64,000 bases of DNA from the NCBI GenBank assembly GCA_027459745.1, contig DAIDHL010000003.1, forward strand, positions 129,125 to 193,124, in the 5' to 3' direction. The DNA comes from Candidatus Levyibacteriota bacterium. Its GTDB lineage: Bacteria > Patescibacteriota > Microgenomatia > Levybacterales > UBA12049. Positions 6,259 to 63,376 of the stretch are shown here, piece by piece. The position numbers were made by a program, and so were the translations under genes. Positions within the stretch are counted from its first letter, which is position 1, and every line of letters starts with the position of its first letter. The notes under the pieces were generated by a model that was not told the origin of the DNA, did not search any database, and saw only the letters and a program-made list of their open reading frames with translations.

Positions 6259-8019
6259 TTACCCAAAAGTGAAGGCGAAAACTTGTGTACCCGAGCTTTC
6301 AAATTCCAATCTCAATAAATGGTTTTCTGTACTACCATGTAAATTAACTAAATCATACAATCTATCTGTATCGACATTCACTACCCCACTCTTCACATCA
6401 TTTCCAGCCACAGTTGGATCAATAGGTTTATTATCTAAGAAAACTTTCACTGTGGCTGATTTATTTAAGTTAGGTGACATAACTAAATAGACATGCTGGG
6501 CTAAGAAGTTGTAGTTCAACTCTGTCTTACCGATTGTTTGACCAAATTGAGACTGAATATCCCAAGTCCCTCCCAGACTAAAAGCATTCATATCTGGTGT
6601 TTGCAGAGTAAAATGATTTTGGCCTCCTGGATACGAACCATTGGGAAAATAATAACTCACCCGATCTGAGCCAATATAAGTTTCTGGAGAAATCTGAGTT
6701 TGAGGTGTTTTATCTGGTAAAGATGATAAACGCACGTTCACTTTTTTACCAGCATCTTTTAACAATAACTGAATTGCCTCTTCCATCTGAGTATATTGTC
6801 CTTCACCAAAATCAGTTCGACGCACGTTCCCATTAGAATCAATCAGATATTCAGCCGGCCAATACTCATTGTTGTAATTATTCCATATGTTATAGTTATT
6901 ATCCTGAACAACTGGATAGTGAATATTAAACATCTTAATCGCATTTATCACGTTGTATGCATCATGTTCAAAGGCAAATTCAGGGGTATGTACACCAATA
7001 ACTACCAAACCATCTTTTTGATACTTATCATACCACCTCGTAACGTGGGGTAAAGTACGGATACAATTAATACAAGTATAGGTCCAAAAGTCTACTAATA
7101 CTACTTTACCTTTTAATTGTTTAATACTTAAAGGTTTACTACTAGTGCCGGTTCCTACGGGATTGTTGAGCCATTGTGTCCCACCCGATAAAGCAGGCGC
7201 TGCATAATTTGTATTAAACAGGCTAGAATTGTCTACTTGCGGATTAGCATTCTTTTGACCTGGATGTTTGAGATTATTCAACTGGTTTATAACAGCTTGA
7301 TTATTATCAATATTCTCTACCCCGTTGGTCAGACTGGGAAAAAGATTCAATAAATAATTTTCTACTACTTTATCGTAATTAGTAGCAATAGCCAGAGAAA
7401 TAAAAATTACCAAAATTCCAAAGACGCGTTGCACATTCAAAGTATATTTGGAAAATGAACGTGTCTTGGCCAGTAATATACTTCCCCCATACGCCAGAAT
7501 GAACAATGGAATACCGACTCCCAAAACATAAAACAATGTGATGAAAATCAAAGTTACAGATATATTTCCGACCGCTGCTAAAGTAGCAACAGTTGCAAAT
7601 ACCGGCCCGGCACAAGGCGTCCAGACAATACCCAGAGATAGTCCAAGCAAAAAACCTGCCCAGAATTCATTTTGATTGGAACCAGGAGCTACTGCAAACT
7701 TGCCGCTAAATCGACTGACTAATCCTTCGAGAAGACGTGAAATAGCTGGAACTACCATTGATAAACCCAGAATCAATAATATGACTACCGCTAACCAACG
7801 TAAAATATTGGGGTTCAGATGAAAAAGACTAATTAACCAAGTGATTGCCAAAGTAAAAAAGGCAAAACTGATCATCAAACCTAAAGTAACTCCTAACGGA
7901 CGCCAATGCCCTTTACTTTGTGTTGATGAAGCTAAAATAATTGGTAGTAAAGGCCAAATACAAGGAGCAAATATCGTCACCAAACCCGATATAAATGCAA
8001 AAAAGAATAGTAATACCAT
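6259..8019 (-). CDS. Cytochrome-c-biogenesis/DsbD-like CcdA transmembrane domain fused to a TlpA/ResA-like thioredoxin domain and a C-terminal extracytoplasmic domain
   Basis: 586 aa. N-terminal TM block with the two CcdA cysteines (FAPC, TPCAGP). Thioredoxin CxxC (WTYTCINC) after the membrane domain. A further roughly 200-aa beta-rich C-terminal domain. Confidence 0.7.
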   Translation of the reverse strand: MVLLFFFAFISGLVTIFAPCIWPLLPIILASSTQSKGHWRPLGVTLGLMISFAFFTLAITWLISLFHLNPNILRWLAVVILLILGLSMVVPAISRLLEGLVSRFSGKFAVAPGSNQNEFWAGFLLGLSLGIVWTPCAGPVFATVATLAAVGNISVTLIFITLFYVLGVGIPLFILAYGGSILLAKTRSFSKYTLNVQRVFGILVIFISLAIATNYDKVVENYLLNLFPSLTNGVENIDNNQAVINQLNNLKHPGQKNANPQVDNSSLFNTNYAAPALSGGTQWLNNPVGTGTSSKPLSIKQLKGKVVLVDFWTYTCINCIRTLPHVTRWYDKYQKDGLVVIGVHTPEFAFEHDAYNVINAIKMFNIHYPVVQDNNYNIWNNYNNEYWPAEYLIDSNGNVRRTDFGEGQYTQMEEAIQLLLKDAGKKVNVRLSSLPDKTPQTQISPETYIGSDRVSYYFPNGSYPGGQNHFTLQTPDMNAFSLGGTWDIQSQFGQTIGKTELNYNFLAQHVYLVMSPNLNKSATVKVFLDNKPIDPTVAGNDVKSGVVNVDTDRLYDLVNLHGSTENHLLRLEFESSGTQVFAFTFG

Positions 8020-21782: not shown

Positions 21783-21806
21783 TTGATTCTGGACAAGCCA
21801 GAATGA
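21783..21806. repeat. Repeat family C core hairpin (mini copy) between the GLUG gene and the downstream hypothetical gene
   Basis: tgattGATTCTGGacaagCCAGAATgacg: 8-mer inverted pair with a 5-nt loop, same arms as copies 1-3. Confidence 0.5.
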
Positions 21807-21814
21807 CGAAATTT

Positions 21815-31003: not shown

Positions 31004-31516
31004 TTATACCTGGATCCAATATCTCATCTTACTTGGCTGGCCAGCAGATTCTCCCTCGATAATATTTTCTAATACTCCCCCATTAGCTTCGATGATCTTG
31101 CGGGAACCGATATTTGTCTCATCACACGTGACTAAAACCTTTTTTAAACCTAATTTCCCTGCCTCGATCAATCCTAAACTCAATGCTTCTTTACCATAAC
31201 CCATTCTCCTTTTACTTGGTTTGATGTAATAACCAATATGACCACCATATTTTAGTAAATGTTCATTTAACTCATGACGTATTTGCAATCTGCCGATTAC
31301 TTCTTCTCCAACTATCAGCCAAAAAGTAGAAGCAGGCACATAACCTGGCGGCAGACTTAAACCATACACGTTATCTTTTAATCGCTTTACGAAATCGGCA
31401 AAAGATTCCTTCTCTGCTGGTTTTTCCAAGATGGTAATGCTTCTTTCATGTTTGGAATCCACCAAAGCATCCATATATGCTTGTTTATATTTTAACGAAG
31501 GTGTAATTAATTTCAT
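31004..31516 (-). CDS. GNAT-family N-acetyltransferase
   Basis: 170 aa. Acetyl-CoA binding motif A (RRMGYGKEAL). Confidence 0.65.
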   Translation of the reverse strand: MKLITPSLKYKQAYMDALVDSKHERSITILEKPAEKESFADFVKRLKDNVYGLSLPPGYVPASTFWLIVGEEVIGRLQIRHELNEHLLKYGGHIGYYIKPSKRRMGYGKEALSLGLIEAGKLGLKKVLVTCDETNIGSRKIIEANGGVLENIIEGESAGQPSKMRYWIQV

Positions 31517-31600
31517 AATCTATGATTATGGCTCAGTCCAGAATCTTTTTATTATGAAGTTCCCAGATTCTGGAGTCATCACTCTGAGCGGGATTCCCCA
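31517..31600. repeat. Repeat family C, copy 1 (GATTCTGG/CCAGAATC hairpin element) in the leader of the GNAT gene
   Basis: aatctatgattatggctcagtCCAGAATCtttttattatgaagttcccaGATTCTGGagtcatcactctgagc. Confidence 0.65.
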
Positions 31601-31624
31601 AAATCACTAATTGCTTACTACTCA

Positions 31625-47423: not shown

Positions 47424-47480
47424 ATAACATTGGAAAGAGGAATGATTTTTTCACTGTATTAAGCAATGTTATTCACGTCT

Positions 47481-47553
47481 TTGCGAGGAGCATAGCGACG
47501 AAGCAATCTAGATTGCTTCGCTCCATTTCATTTCGCTCGCAATGACAATCATC
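47481..47553. repeat. Repeat family A, copy 1: about 70-bp imperfect palindrome with perfect 22-bp palindrome CGAAGCAATCTAGATTGCTTCG, abutting the start of the transketolase N-subunit gene
   Basis: ttgcgaggagcatagcgacGAAGCAATCTAGATTGCTTCgctccatttcatttcgctcgcaatgacaatcatcta. The gene's ATG at 47555 lies in the element tail. Confidence 0.8.
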
Positions 47554-51334: not shown

Positions 51335-51420
51335 AATTTAAAATTTAGAATTATTCCTGATTCTCTAAAATTTGATTCTGGAGTCACTACGTTCCGAATG
51401 ACTATGAAGTCTCGTCATTG
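51335..51420. repeat. Repeat family C, copy 2 (degenerate) 3' of the FAD-oxidase gene
   Basis: ttattcctgattctctaaaatttGATTCTGGAGTCACTACGttccgaatgactatgaagtc. Shares GATTCTGGAGTCACTACG with copy 3. Confidence 0.55.
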
Positions 51421-51437
51421 CAAGGGTTTGAAAAACC

Positions 51438-51495
51438 CAAAGCAATCTAGATTGCAACGTCGTTCGCTTCGCTCACTCCTAGCAATGACAATCTA
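51438..51495. repeat. Repeat family A, copy 2 (degenerate; left arm replaced by a gggtttgaaaaaccc mini-hairpin)
   Basis: aAGCAATCTAGATTGCaacgtcgttcgcttcgctcactcctagcaatgacaatcta. Confidence 0.6.
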
Positions 51496-53541: not shown

Positions 53542-53586
53542 AGATTTATCATAAAGAATTTTTGCCGGTGCTACAAGTACTATCGT

Positions 53587-53660
53587 AATTGCGAGCGAAA
53601 TGAAATGTAACGAAGCAATCTAGATTGCTTCGTCGCTACGCTCCTCGCAATAACAATTAT
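53587..53660. repeat. Repeat family A, copy 3, inverted relative to copy 1; contains perfect 24-bp palindrome ACGAAGCAATCTAGATTGCTTCGT
   Basis: attgcgagcgaaatgaaatgtaACGAAGCAATCTAGATTGCTTCGTcgctacgctcctcgcaataacaattatcta. The reverse complement of copy 1's 60-bp hairpin part matches this copy at about 57 of 60 positions by my hand alignment. The 3' tail (caat[g/a]acaat[c/t]atcta) is in the same orientation in both. Confidence 0.75.
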
Positions 53661-60423: not shown

Positions 60424-61626
60424 CTATAACAAAACATTCATTATCTTCTTCAACTCTCTCACAAACCTATCCACTTCTTCTTTGGTGTTATAAAAATAAA
60501 ATGATACACGGACAGAACCTTTTAACTGATGGGCATTAAACCATGAATGTACACAGTGCTGACCTGAACGTACCATAATCCCCTGTTCACTCAGCATCAA
60601 GGCAATTTGATGCACATCAACTTTCTCAACATAAAAACTAACAATTCCCCCTCGTTGTTTGGCATCTTCCGGACCAAGAATTTTAACTTTAGGCAATTTC
60701 AACAGTTCTGTTGTTAAATATTCATTCAACTCTTCTTCTTGTTGGGCAATTTTTTCTAAACCAACTTTCTGTAAATATCTAACTGCCTCGGCCAAACCAA
60801 TAATTCCCGCATAATCTTGTAATCCAGCTTCAAATTTTTCAGGTACAGGCAAAAATTCATGTTCGGTGTAAGTTGATGAGGCAACTGTATCCCCGCCGAC
60901 TAGAAATGGTTGCAAGTTGTCTAATAATTTTTGTTTACCATATAAAATTCCTGTCCCTGATGGACCCAACATTTTGTGTCCAGAAAAAACTACAAAGTCT
61001 GCATCTAATTTTTGTACGTCAATTTTTTCATGTGGTGCAGATTGTGCCGCATCGATTGAAACTAAAGCCTGGTGCTGATGGGCAACGTTAATAATTTGCT
61101 CAATCGGATTAGTCACGCCATCTAAATTGGAGGTCTGCACAATGGAAACTAATTTAACTTTATTTTTCTTTAATAAAGTCTCAAAGGCTGCCAAATCAAA
61201 TGTATTGTCTGGCAAAGACTTAACAATTAAATGTTTTATACCTAATTTTTCGGCTAAAACTTGCCAAGGAATTAAATTGGAATTATGTTCTTTGTCTGAA
61301 GTGACAACTATGTCACCTGATTTAAAACCCAAACTATTGGCAATTAGATTAATACCTTCAGTCGTATTGCGTGTGAAGATAATTTCTTCCTTTTTTTTCG
61401 CATTTAAGAACTTGGCAATTGTTGCTCGTGCTGCATCTACCTCTTCAGTCACCCTCGCAGCTAATTTATGCATGCTTCTGCCGCCACAGGCGGGATAATC
61501 AGTGTAGTACTCTACGATTTTATCTATCACCGATTGAGAACGCAGACTTTGACAAGCTGAATCAAAATAGACAATTTTATTATCTCGCAACAGTGGAAAA
61601 TCCTGACGAATGTGTTGTAAATCCAT
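60424..61626 (-). CDS. sufS: Cysteine desulfurase (class-V aminotransferase, SufS/CsdA-like)
   Basis: 400 aa. PLP-lysine motif FSGHKMLGPSGTGILYG. C-terminal RSGQHCVHSW resembles the SufS RAGHHCA persulfide-cysteine loop. Confidence 0.75.
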   Translation of the reverse strand: MDLQHIRQDFPLLRDNKIVYFDSACQSLRSQSVIDKIVEYYTDYPACGGRSMHKLAARVTEEVDAARATIAKFLNAKKKEEIIFTRNTTEGINLIANSLGFKSGDIVVTSDKEHNSNLIPWQVLAEKLGIKHLIVKSLPDNTFDLAAFETLLKKNKVKLVSIVQTSNLDGVTNPIEQIINVAHQHQALVSIDAAQSAPHEKIDVQKLDADFVVFSGHKMLGPSGTGILYGKQKLLDNLQPFLVGGDTVASSTYTEHEFLPVPEKFEAGLQDYAGIIGLAEAVRYLQKVGLEKIAQQEEELNEYLTTELLKLPKVKILGPEDAKQRGGIVSFYVEKVDVHQIALMLSEQGIMVRSGQHCVHSWFNAHQLKGSVRVSFYFYNTKEEVDRFVRELKKIMNVLL

Positions 61627-61715
61627 AAAAATCTATGATTCTGGCTTGACCAGAATCGAGAGAATTAAACCTAGATTCTGGAGTCACTACGCTCCCCAGA
61701 ATCATATTGTTTATC
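61627..61715. repeat. Repeat family C, copy 3, forming the sufS 5' leader: four alternating GATTCTGG / CCAGAATC 8-mers
   Basis: aaaaatctatGATTCTGGcttgaCCAGAATCgagagaattaaacctaGATTCTGGAGTCACTACGctccCCAGAATCatattg. Lies immediately upstream (minus sense) of the sufS start at 61626. Confidence 0.7.
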
Positions 61716-61932
61716 TCCCAAAGTATAAATCAAAACAAGCCTCATCAGGTGTGACCCAAGTCACAAGAAAATAATGCGGCGTAAAGTGAGAAGCGTTAAG
61801 AGTAAGTAATAAAATATTAGATCTATGATTTAAGATTAAAGATTTAAGAAACCCCGTAGAAGAAATCTTCTTAATTCCTATATCATAAATCTATAATCAT
61901 CTCTTCCTACTTAACACTTTACCCTCTAAAAC

Positions 61933-63297
61933 TTAGAATTTAGAATTTAATCTCTCTACATCTCTCCACCCAATATCTGTACGGAAATGTAGATTATTAC
62001 CTTCTATACTAATTAAGGACATGGCACTATATGCTTTATGTCTTGCTTCTATGACATTTCTCCCTTCACCAACAATATAAAATAACCTTCCACCATTGAC
62101 ATAATATTTTTTATCCTTAAATTTTACTCCCGCCCCATAAATTTTAACTCCCGGAATTTTCTTCGCCAAATGTAGACCAAAAATCTGTTTACCTTTTACA
62201 TCTGCATAATTATCTGGATAGCCTTTAGAAGCACCTGCTACTACTACTCTGGATTTTTTATTTATTTTTAATTTTAGTTTGGCTAATTTTCCCTCCACTA
62301 TCGCCATACTCACCTCAAATAAATCATTTCGCAAACCCGGCAGCATCACTTCTACTTCCGGATCACCCCAACGTGCATTAAATTCAATCACATAAGGCAC
62401 AGTTCTACCCTTATGCTTAATGATAATTCCACCCAGATATAAAACTCCTTTGTATGACCGATTTTCTTTGAACAAACCAGCAATTGTTTTTTGCACAATG
62501 TCTTTTTTTACTTGTGATAACAAACTGACATTTACTAATAACGGCGGTGTACTTGCACCCATGCCTCCAGTGTTCTCACCTTCATCAAAATCATTAACTC
62601 GTTTATGATCCTGTGCACTACCTAAAATTTGATAACTTTTGCCATCGGATAAAATAAATAAAGAAAATTCTTCGCCATTGCTGCCATCGTCATTTTGCAA
62701 CCATTCCTCCAATACATAAACTTGTCCTGCTTCCCCAAATTTTTCTAACTCTTTGATGCGCACTAATGCTTCTAAGTTATTTTTGGCTGGCAAAGCACCT
62801 TTACCTTCAGCCAACCCCGCGGCTTTAACAAACCAAGCGTTATCAATAGATTGCGATTTAAGAAATTTTTCTCCCTCTGCCACTGATTTACAAACTTTAA
62901 ATTTAGGCTGAGGCAATCCATATTTCTCACCAAAATTTCTGGCCCAAGCTTTGTCCCATTCAATTTGACCTGCTGCTTTACTCGGACCAACAACAGGAAT
63001 ATTGAGAGCTACTAATTTATCGACCAAACCAGCAGCTATGGCATTATCCTGAGCTACGTCGACCAAATCGACCTTCTCCACTTTGCATATTTCTACAATG
63101 TCTTCAATGCTGGTAGTTTTCAAATTTGGGTAAATTTTAACTGGTTTTTTAGAATTAAAACCCATCATATCATTGCCCGGTACAGCCAAAATCTTTTTAA
63201 CTTTTTTACTTTTGGCATATGCATCTACCAATGCACTCCCTCTGCCTCCAGCATCAATGACTAAAACTGTATTTAATTTTTTTCGCATAATTCTCAT
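61933..63297 (-). CDS. purD: Phosphoribosylamine--glycine ligase
   Basis: 454 aa. N-domain VLVIDAGGRGSAL. ATP-grasp with VIEFNARWGDPE (cf. the PurD motif IEFNCRFGDPE). Confidence 0.75.
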   Translation of the reverse strand: MRIMRKKLNTVLVIDAGGRGSALVDAYAKSKKVKKILAVPGNDMMGFNSKKPVKIYPNLKTTSIEDIVEICKVEKVDLVDVAQDNAIAAGLVDKLVALNIPVVGPSKAAGQIEWDKAWARNFGEKYGLPQPKFKVCKSVAEGEKFLKSQSIDNAWFVKAAGLAEGKGALPAKNNLEALVRIKELEKFGEAGQVYVLEEWLQNDDGSNGEEFSLFILSDGKSYQILGSAQDHKRVNDFDEGENTGGMGASTPPLLVNVSLLSQVKKDIVQKTIAGLFKENRSYKGVLYLGGIIIKHKGRTVPYVIEFNARWGDPEVEVMLPGLRNDLFEVSMAIVEGKLAKLKLKINKKSRVVVAGASKGYPDNYADVKGKQIFGLHLAKKIPGVKIYGAGVKFKDKKYYVNGGRLFYIVGEGRNVIEARHKAYSAMSLISIEGNNLHFRTDIGWRDVERLNSKF

Positions 63298-63376
63298 TTA
63301 TTTGTCATTCCAGCAAAAGCTGGAAACCAGAAAAAAATCCGCCTGGATCCCAGATCAAGTCTTGGATGACAGAATA

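Follow-up and report, generated by a model that had tools for sequence, protein, structure and literature searches.

The interleaved octamers in the sufS leader of a Levyibacteriota bacterium are very probably stem arms of a dispersed REP-like hairpin repeat

In a 64,000-nt stretch of DNA from Candidatus Levyibacteriota bacterium (the window), the leader of a sufS-like gene carries the octamer GATTCTGG and its complement CCAGAATC twice each in alternation, raising the question of whether this leader is a switch that controls sufS or holds a sequence that came to lie there for other reasons. An earlier reading made from the letters alone (the sequence-only reading) had seen in the four arms the topology of an attenuator or anti-terminator, and had offered an iron-sulfur (Fe-S) or redox regulator site and the core of a repeat family as further ideas. 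The analysis reported here indicates that the octamers are very probably the stem arms of one ~71-nt copy, designated copy A, of a dispersed hairpin repeat similar to repetitive extragenic palindromic (REP) sequences, namely a CGTC-tagged dimer or NTS-like pair of Ssn-related motifs (SRMs). Octamer counts, the scan for stem subfamilies and the search for ssn, the gene of the Ssn nuclease, all covered the whole window.

Exact matches to GATTCTGG were found on the plus strand at 61637-61644 and 61674-61681, and exact matches to CCAGAATC at 61650-61657 and 61696-61703. The four octamers interleave over 61637-61703, as had been described, and all are placed between the sufS-like start codon and position 61705. 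In the 64 kb, the octamer or its complement occurred 9 times against 1.71 expected, and none of 100 shuffles of the window reached 9; the claimed enrichment was thus reproduced. At least nine occurrences had been said to cluster in four spots; of the nine counted here, that at 7767-7774 falls within a DsbD-like gene and appears to be a chance match. The outer arms of copy A are 10 nt long, ATGATTCTGG at 61635-61644 and CCAGAATCAT at 61696-61705, and are mutually complementary. On the minus strand, copy A is composed of ATGATTCTGG-GGAGCGTAGTGACT-CCAGAATC-spacer (16 nt)-GATTCTGG-TCAAG-CCAGAATCAT. Its heads are ATG at both ends, the canonical head being GTC, and the C after the palindrome is kept.

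The purD-sufS region was compared with that of three relatives (L008, L009, and L010), all of which keep the purD-sufS-thioredoxin synteny, with SufS amino acid identities of 76% for L008 and 73% for L009 and L010; the closest relative available is GCA_027459725.1, with SufS 76% and COX1 93% identical. The relatives' purD-sufS spacer is ~107 nt long and aligns with the window through TGTGA-N6-TCACA, 22 nt, TATACT, and GGGA. In L008, L009, and L010, the conserved block runs through TATACTTGGG and is followed by the ATG after 11-15 nt, without the element. Exactly at this block-to-ATG stretch, the window has ~80 extra nt, made up of the four-arm element and a few bases. The relative with 76% SufS identity had no units in 40 kb of syntenic DNA, and copies B and C of the window (Table 1) were also absent from it. 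Since none of the closest relatives has the element in its orthologous leader, the ~71 nt are an insertion specific to this lineage, in its sufS leader.

When genomes were scanned for exact matches to an 18-mer of the long-loop unit, 7 loci were obtained, about the number expected by chance; a bipartite element was present in 6 of them, and these revealed the architecture of the repeat. A degenerate-pattern scan of metagenome contigs yielded at least 120 loci (L011-L130). The family statistics given in this text rest on the matches listed from these loci, with dimers counted in 111 curated dimers and 208 pattern matches. The consensus is YGTCATYCTGG-loop-CCAGRATC-spacer (1-30 nt)-GATYCTGG-loop-CCAGRATGACR. 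In a typical dimer, one loop has 5 nt (CTTGT/ACAAG) and the other has 14-29 nt and is structured; the CTTGT pentamer formed the loop in 42 of 263 units. All 111 dimers have their tags outside, GTC being present in 104 and GAC in 108, with Y at -1, R at +1, and C..G flanking the spacer in 109. T/C-type heterodimers accounted for 47 of the 111, and C/C homodimers were rare. Dimers with ATCCTGG in both hairpins numbered 2 among the 208 pattern matches, with ~9 expected from the type frequency.

The architecture turns up again at hundreds of unrelated sites in contigs of the Patescibacteria type. Copies take up very short gaps between genes of any orientation, also after stop codons, and about twenty lie in frame deep within long open reading frames (ORFs), among them the dimers at L130 4773-4829 and L056 675-730 (in CarB within the ATP-grasp region, and in a CopA-type ATPase shortly past DKTGTLT) and those at ~17 further loci. 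These intragenic copies encode peptides such as VILGSEATPES..DSGQARMT; in the large subunit of carbamoyl-phosphate synthase and the CopA-type ATPase, the element peptide is an insertion relative to solved structures and has no counterpart in homologues. With respect to the sense of ssn, copies inside ORFs were oriented 19 versus 3 and intergenic copies 7 versus 6, and this bias within ORFs is more likely due to selection on translatability than to strand-specific insertion. The sequence-only reading had taken a wide spread over non-leader positions as the mark of plain multicopy REP behaviour rather than of a sufS switch. Such a spread was found, with at least 8 repeat loci of three stem subfamilies in the window alone, so that its fallback idea, the core of a repeat family, is the one that survives.

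A single-domain GIY-YIG ORF of ~95 aa was found exactly in the dimer spacer at three loci selected by the repeat pattern (L028, L033, and L082). The association was then tested by protein alone: from 1,760 homologues at E<=1e-10, five (P0247, P0345, P0321, P0358, and P0333) were chosen regardless of the repeat, and in the DNA around them (loci L132, L134, L142, L146, and L147) all five genes were bracketed by hairpins, giving 8 such loci in total. The arrangement is CGTCATTCTGG-loop-CCAGAATC, 2-15 nt, ATG...ORF..., GATTCTGG-loop-CCAGAATGACG, and full-length gene-bearing versions are ~400 nt long. At four of the five protein-first loci, the 3' loop is an ACAAG-type pentamer, the TGA lies inside the terminal arm and the ORF ends in ...ILDKPE; at L147, the two loops have traded places and the ORF ends 2 nt short of the right hairpin. 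The protein matches PF01541 and shares 49% identity with a 94-aa ORF of N. gonorrhoeae. That ORF has Y6 and Y17, lies between CGTCATTCCCGC..GCGGGAATC NTS repeats and is the orthologue of SsnA in Chenal et al. 2025 (PMC11893778). L080 holds a more distant Ssn with stem variants of its own on its flanks, as expected for co-varying pairs of enzyme and site. Searches of NCBIfam and PDB sequences with the Ssn from the candidate phyla radiation (CPR) returned nothing useful. The identical ends, the ORF lying exactly in the spacer and the stop codon in the terminal arm suggest that gene-less dimers come from a unit that carried ssn.

The ssn gene (1201-1500 in L132, L134, L142, and L146) adjoins yqeY, or follows secF or recR, in different CPR lineages. 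This conserved neighbourhood suggests a single-copy, vertically inherited gene, like those of RAYTs, and not a freely hopping insertion sequence.

Copy A corresponds to these gene-bearing elements. On the sufS sense strand, its long-loop unit comes first and its short-loop unit last, which is the order found in ssn-carrying elements, and the short-loop unit corresponds to the 3' hairpin that bears the ssn stop codon in autonomous copies. With just 16 nt where the ssn gene would be, copy A is read as a gene-less derivative, similar to MITEs (miniature inverted-repeat transposable elements), that would have arisen by internal deletion from an ssn-carrying element. Ssn proteins (cd10448) are nucleases specific for single-stranded DNA that bind the NTS/SRM hairpin and cut a few nt upstream; cleavage depends above all on the three bases that precede the palindrome, and binding on the C that follows it, and both activities have been shown for the Neisseria and Wolbachia enzymes only (PMC11893778). 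The hairpins of copy A would act as single-stranded DNA recognition sites of an Ssn-type nuclease, which would bind the hairpin, cut just outside the GTC head and probably spread or maintain the repeats.

A wider reading is held tentatively and is given less than even credence. The short dimers would be MITE-like sequences spread in trans by a single-copy, largely vertical Ssn GIY-YIG nuclease, that is, a REPIN-like replicator independent of RAYT and the first case of bacterial DNA transposition driven by a GIY-YIG enzyme, inserting in frame inside essential genes and rewiring leaders such as that of sufS in the tiny genomes of Patescibacteria. A literature search pairing GIY-YIG with REP or MITE gave no matching work, a looser search leading to the Ssn paper, and a search for follow-up on Ssn/NTS mobility found none in the literature searched. 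A 9-nt spacer, CTAACAACG, was also seen to recur between units in L032, L060, and L108, and as its reverse complement in L036 and L077, on contigs whose flanks differ, which would fit copying of the dimer as a whole.

Several observations weigh against reading copy A as a derivative of an Ssn-borne repeat. The 64-kb window has no ssn homologue, and a cognate nuclease in this organism is hypothetical. Copy A is without GTC heads, which are important for cleavage in Neisseria; judged by the mutagenesis data from Neisseria, its ATG heads may let it be bound but cut poorly, or it may form part of a sub-lineage whose specificity is altered, or be decayed. The published SRM search string, HGTCWYN(0-2)YYVSBRHN(0-5)WNVSBRGN(0-2)RNCYNB, which found 5 NTS in the N. 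gonorrhoeae locus used as a control, recovered no ATYCTGG unit in L090, L132, or L134, nor copy A. No target-site duplication was found in the dimers, only the Y at -1 and R at +1, and no recent transposition was seen between near-identical genomes; for these two reasons, that the repeats move, and how, is an inference. Copies A and B have the flank AATCTATGATT in common at their junction and lie 5-8 nt from a start codon each, for which chance insertion offers no obvious explanation. Finally, the short-loop hairpin followed by ATAGATTTTT scores as terminator-like, and a regulatory side effect on sufS is possible.

The last of these points concerns what copy A could do to its neighbour. The gene product gave 456 bits against TIGR01979 (cut-off, 475), and the gene is stand-alone, between purD and a thioredoxin-like gene and outside any sufBCD operon. 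If TATACT is the -10 element, the insert would make up nearly the whole 5' untranslated region of sufS. It could act by having moved the ancestral GGGAG 80 nt upstream, by opening an upstream ORF (uORF), by placing a 9-bp hairpin near the ATG, or through a weak terminator-like hairpin. The uORF begins 9 nt after GGGAG (61715-61719), overlaps the sufS start out of frame and passes through copy A in the reading frame used by in-frame intragenic copies elsewhere. The 9-bp hairpin sits 8 nt before the sufS ATG, and a terminator-consensus scan flags 61657-61637 (-) with its downstream T-run, which starts 5 nt past the stem. Copy A may in these ways alter sufS expression, and nothing points to a designed switch; an effect on sufS, if any, would be a by-product of the landing site.

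Compatible with this explanation is the proposal that a selfish insertion has been co-opted, the displaced GGGAG, the uORF and the hairpin now setting sufS translation or mRNA stability. The anatomy of the leader fits, copies A and B have the same junction with a start codon, and a post-transcriptional role has been proposed for REPs of the CGTC and GTAG classes that lie in 5' regions (PMC3733652). As the arrangement is found in one lineage only, we consider co-option unlikely.

Much less probable is the switch proposed in the sequence-only reading, an attenuator or riboswitch-like leader with alternative hairpins in which the ATG-proximal hairpin and its U-run act as terminator or occlude the ribosome-binding site. 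The four-arm topology is real, the proximal hairpin is flagged as terminator-like, and a fold pairing arms 1:4 and 2:3 is possible. When the leader was folded with RNA parameters, however, the minimum-energy structure was 1:2 plus 3:4 at -41.5 kcal/mol, and forcing 2:3, with or without 1:4, gave -30.8 kcal/mol, 10.7 kcal/mol worse; pairing probabilities were >=0.98 for 1:2 and 3:4 and 0.0 for 2:3 and 1:4. The comparison of these folds, put forward in that reading as a check, turned out in favour of two hairpins, and in the computed structure copy A folds as two independent local hairpins. The family agrees with the fold: the variable stem position carries Y in the 5' arm and R in the 3' arm, and Watson-Crick pairing joins arm 1 to arm 2 in 205 of the 208 pattern matches and arm 2 to arm 3 in just 120, the other 88 being G·T (42) or A·C (46). 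The 111 curated dimers gave the same picture. Y/R covariation is thus present within each hairpin and not between hairpins, and 1:2 and 3:4 alone are supported. Rfam gave no match for the entire window at the gathering threshold, nor for 61560-61960 at E<=1, and in 12 family loci matched only tRNAs. Together with the absence of the element from the leaders of L008, L009, and L010, its occurrence in every genomic context including ORFs, and the distance of the U-run from the stem, these results argue against the switch.

The octamers could instead be operator half-sites of a dimeric Fe-S or redox regulator of sufS and of the other genes that bear them, as was also suggested; the arms are palindromic and strongly conserved, and two copies adjoin start codons. 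This is extremely improbable, as the genes near the repeat are functionally unrelated (those for GNAT, FAD oxidase, and LysM proteins, carB, copA, ATP synthase, and others) and sites also lie after stop codons and within genes. Moreover, loop sequences vary with their internal stems kept, e.g. GGAGCGAAGCGACT and TCCGCCAGCTGGCGGA; compensatory changes thus preserve the ability to form hairpins, which points to folding of single strands and not to recognition of the duplex. A more credible regulator site for sufS is the perfect TGTGA-N6-TCACA, a CRP/FNR-type palindrome that is unique in the window (0.07 expected), perfect in the orthologous leader of L008 and has one mismatch in those of L009 and L010. 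It is a candidate activator site, and its centre is ~41-42 nt upstream of the would-be transcription start.

A second insertion, of ~140 nt (61781-61922), was observed in the purD-sufS spacer. It has imperfect inverted repeats, GTAAAGTGAGAAGCGTTAAGAG / CTCTTCCTACTTAACACTTTAC, at its ends, is missing from the relatives' 107-nt spacer and looks like a MITE.

Mobilisation of the dimers as REPINs by a RAYT (IS200-like Y1 transposase), as in Pseudomonas and E. coli, would account for the inverted two-REP arrangement and for a CTAC in one loop (GTAG on the other strand), and a Y1_Tnp gene is present in L017 (4077-4787, PF01797, E=1.4e-9), yet it scarcely merits belief, because that gene is bracketed by a different hairpin, TACACCTCCGAGGTGTA, phmmer seeded with an E. 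coli YafM sequence found no other RAYT in ~860 kb of element-bearing DNA, the tag is CGTC and not GTAG, and the repeat brackets the GIY-YIG gene instead. The Y1 transposase gene and TACACCTCCGAGGTGTA in L017 form a separate RAYT/REP-like pair on a contig that also bears the CGTC-type repeat.

The remaining copies in the window are listed in Table 1. The site in the leader of the GNAT gene, previously described as a single hairpin, proved to be a decayed four-arm copy. That after the FAD oxidase gene is one unit, as had been said, but not a simple hairpin, its 3' arm having lost CCA; an ATTGC-subfamily dimer lies 10 nt away, forming a small cluster. The hairpin described downstream of the GLUG gene was recovered as a solo unit. 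A (C)GTC head is present in copy D and in the dimer at 51413-51490. The dimer at 63303-63371 separates the start codon of purD from the next gene upstream, so that purD is flanked by repeats on both sides, and its left unit (63303-63330) is the sole match in the window to the published SRM search sequence. In the subfamily with ATTGC/GCAAT stems, a recurring 14-mer, GCAATCTAGATTGC, is the junction of two units. Comparison of 31004-31607 with L131 6680-6765 showed that the closest relative has neither the GNAT gene nor copy B and that its MerR-like and RibD_C genes are adjacent; the two may have arrived, or have been lost, together.

Table 1. Positions of the sufS leader features and of the repeat copies in the window
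Feature	Position	Strand	Remarks
SufS-family (class II) cysteine desulfurase, 400 aa	60424..61626	-	ATG 61626-61624; leader holds the insertion
uORF, 41 codons	61580..61705	-	ATG in outer arm of copy A; MILGSVVTPES..DSGQARII
Copy A, complete head-to-head dimer in sufS leader	61635..61705	-	Fold; absence from orthologous leaders
Copy A, short-loop unit	61635..61657	-	Arms 61635-61644 and 61650-61657; loop TCAAG on minus strand
Copy A, long-loop unit	61674..61705	-	Arms 61674-61681 and 61696-61705; counterpart of 5' hairpin in ssn-containing element
Leader block kept in relatives	61716..61767	-	TGTGA-N6-TCACA 61750-61765, 22 nt, -10-like TATACT 61722-61727, GGGAG
Copy B, decayed four-arm dimer	31522..31607	-	Directly upstream of GNAT start (31516); exact octamers are arms 2 and 3
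Copy C, single long-loop unit	51374..51402	-	Between convergent genes, after FAD oxidase gene; GATTCTGG-AGTCACTACGTTCC-(CCA deleted)GAATGAC
Copy D, solo short-loop unit, canonical GACG tag	21785..21808	+	GATTCTGG-ACAAG-CCAGAATGACG; just past LysM/GLUG stop codon
Variant head-to-head dimer	63303..63371	.	Just upstream of purD start; TGTCATTCCAGC-AAAA-GCTGGAA...GATCCCAGA-TCAAG-TCTTGGATGACA
ATTGC-subfamily head-to-head dimer	51413..51490	.	CGTCATTGC-loop-GCAATC-TAG-ATTGC-loop-GCAATGACA
ATTGC-subfamily dimer, left head decayed	47476..47547	.	
ATTGC-subfamily dimer, heads decayed	53584..53655	.	

Regarding the host, the best named matches for SufS and cytochrome oxidase subunit I were from Patescibacteria, Levyibacteriota, and Saccharimonadales. 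The cyanobacterial HIP1/STRR/SDR repeats, a first guess by look, were discarded, the window being without GCGATCGC, having a GC content of 36.5% and giving its best named protein matches in Patescibacteria. Among the low-GC records of metagenome-assembled genomes (MAGs) L002-L007, five are titled 'uncultured Gammaproteobacteria' and L005 'bacterium'. Since Patescibacteria are indicated by the repeat family as well as by the window and the ssn homologues, these titles may be unreliable; otherwise, the family would cross phyla. Examination of the genes neighbouring the repeat for enrichment gave mostly housekeeping families. Genes for PF05635 four-helix-bundle proteins ('S23 ribosomal protein / 23S rRNA intervening sequence') also recur, sometimes twice per locus, in L043, L050, L057, L084, L087, L089, L100, L109, L118, and L130, and are not adjacent to the repeat.

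These results remove a false lead, in that the octamers are not a riboswitch or operator of sufS and the candidate sequence for regulation is TGTGA-N6-TCACA. They extend the Ssn/SRM system and the CGTC-REP class to Patescibacteria, with a stem variant that escapes the published search string, and, as regards anatomy, make the clearest case to date for an origin of the gene-less dimers from a unit with ssn. Insertions similar to Rickettsia palindromic elements (RPEs), placed in frame in conserved genes where the genome is very small, also bear on gene calling and protein annotation in CPR MAGs.

Among known systems, trp-type attenuators likewise have four segments, in which either 1 or 3 can be the partner of segment 2 and either 2 or 4 that of segment 3, and a distal hairpin followed by Ts. 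They differ in that the leader with copy A is not conserved in orthologues, lacks the logic of a leader peptide tied to a pathway, shows a large energy gap between its folds and contains a sequence dispersed genome-wide. REPIN-RAYT systems were reportedly described by Bertels and Rainey in 2011. The present family is like them in having two inverted palindromic units as a short non-autonomous doublet, and in its nuclease gene, which is apparently single-copy, bracketed by the repeat and often at a conserved syntenic place (yqeY or secF). It is unlike them in that the enzyme is of the GIY-YIG type and not an HUH/Y1 transposase, the tag is CGTC and not GTAG, and the units fold separately and not into one long hairpin.

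CGTC-tagged REPs (CGTC-1 to CGTC-4), which include dRS3 of Neisseria and RPE-4 and RPE-6 of Rickettsia, have a CGTC or TGTC tag, a stem of 8-9 bp starting with AT and a loop of 4-5 nt; they occur mainly as head-to-head dimers with the tags outside, with frequent heterodimers and intragenic copies, and have no dedicated transposase (PMC3733652). The present repeats share the tag, the AT at the start of the stem, one 5-nt loop, head-to-head dimers and heterodimers, intergenic and in-frame copies and the lack of a RAYT, and the scarcity of ATCCTGG/ATCCTGG dimers matches the unexplained heterodimer preference of that class. In contrast, the stem here is 7 bp, the second loop has 14-29 nt with a stem of its own, the host phylum is outside the five listed (PMC3733652), and a candidate nuclease is identified here and none was there. 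The in-frame insertion of peptides in conserved genes is the behaviour described for Rickettsia palindromic elements.

The SRM/NTS elements are CGTCATTCCCGCG-MAV-GCGGGAATCYRG, as compared with CGTCATTCTGG-CTTGT-CCAGAATCYAG in the present family. In N. meningitidis, only 2% of NTS are intragenic; NTS-ssnA-NTS was likened to an insertion sequence, and Patescibacteria go unmentioned in that work (PMC11893778). Unlike SRM/NTS, the present repeats have a 7-bp ATYCTGG stem, usually one unit with a long, structured and variable loop, hosts of the Patescibacteria type, many in-frame intragenic copies, the ssn stop in the terminal arm, and, in copy A, ATG heads. The two are alike in the oriented hairpin with a CGTCAT head, the stem starting with ATTC, the C and then YRG after the palindrome, the bracketing of a ~95-aa GIY-YIG gene and the many gene-less copies. 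The present family belongs to the CGTC-REP/Ssn-related-motif system, both its phylum and its stem variant being new.

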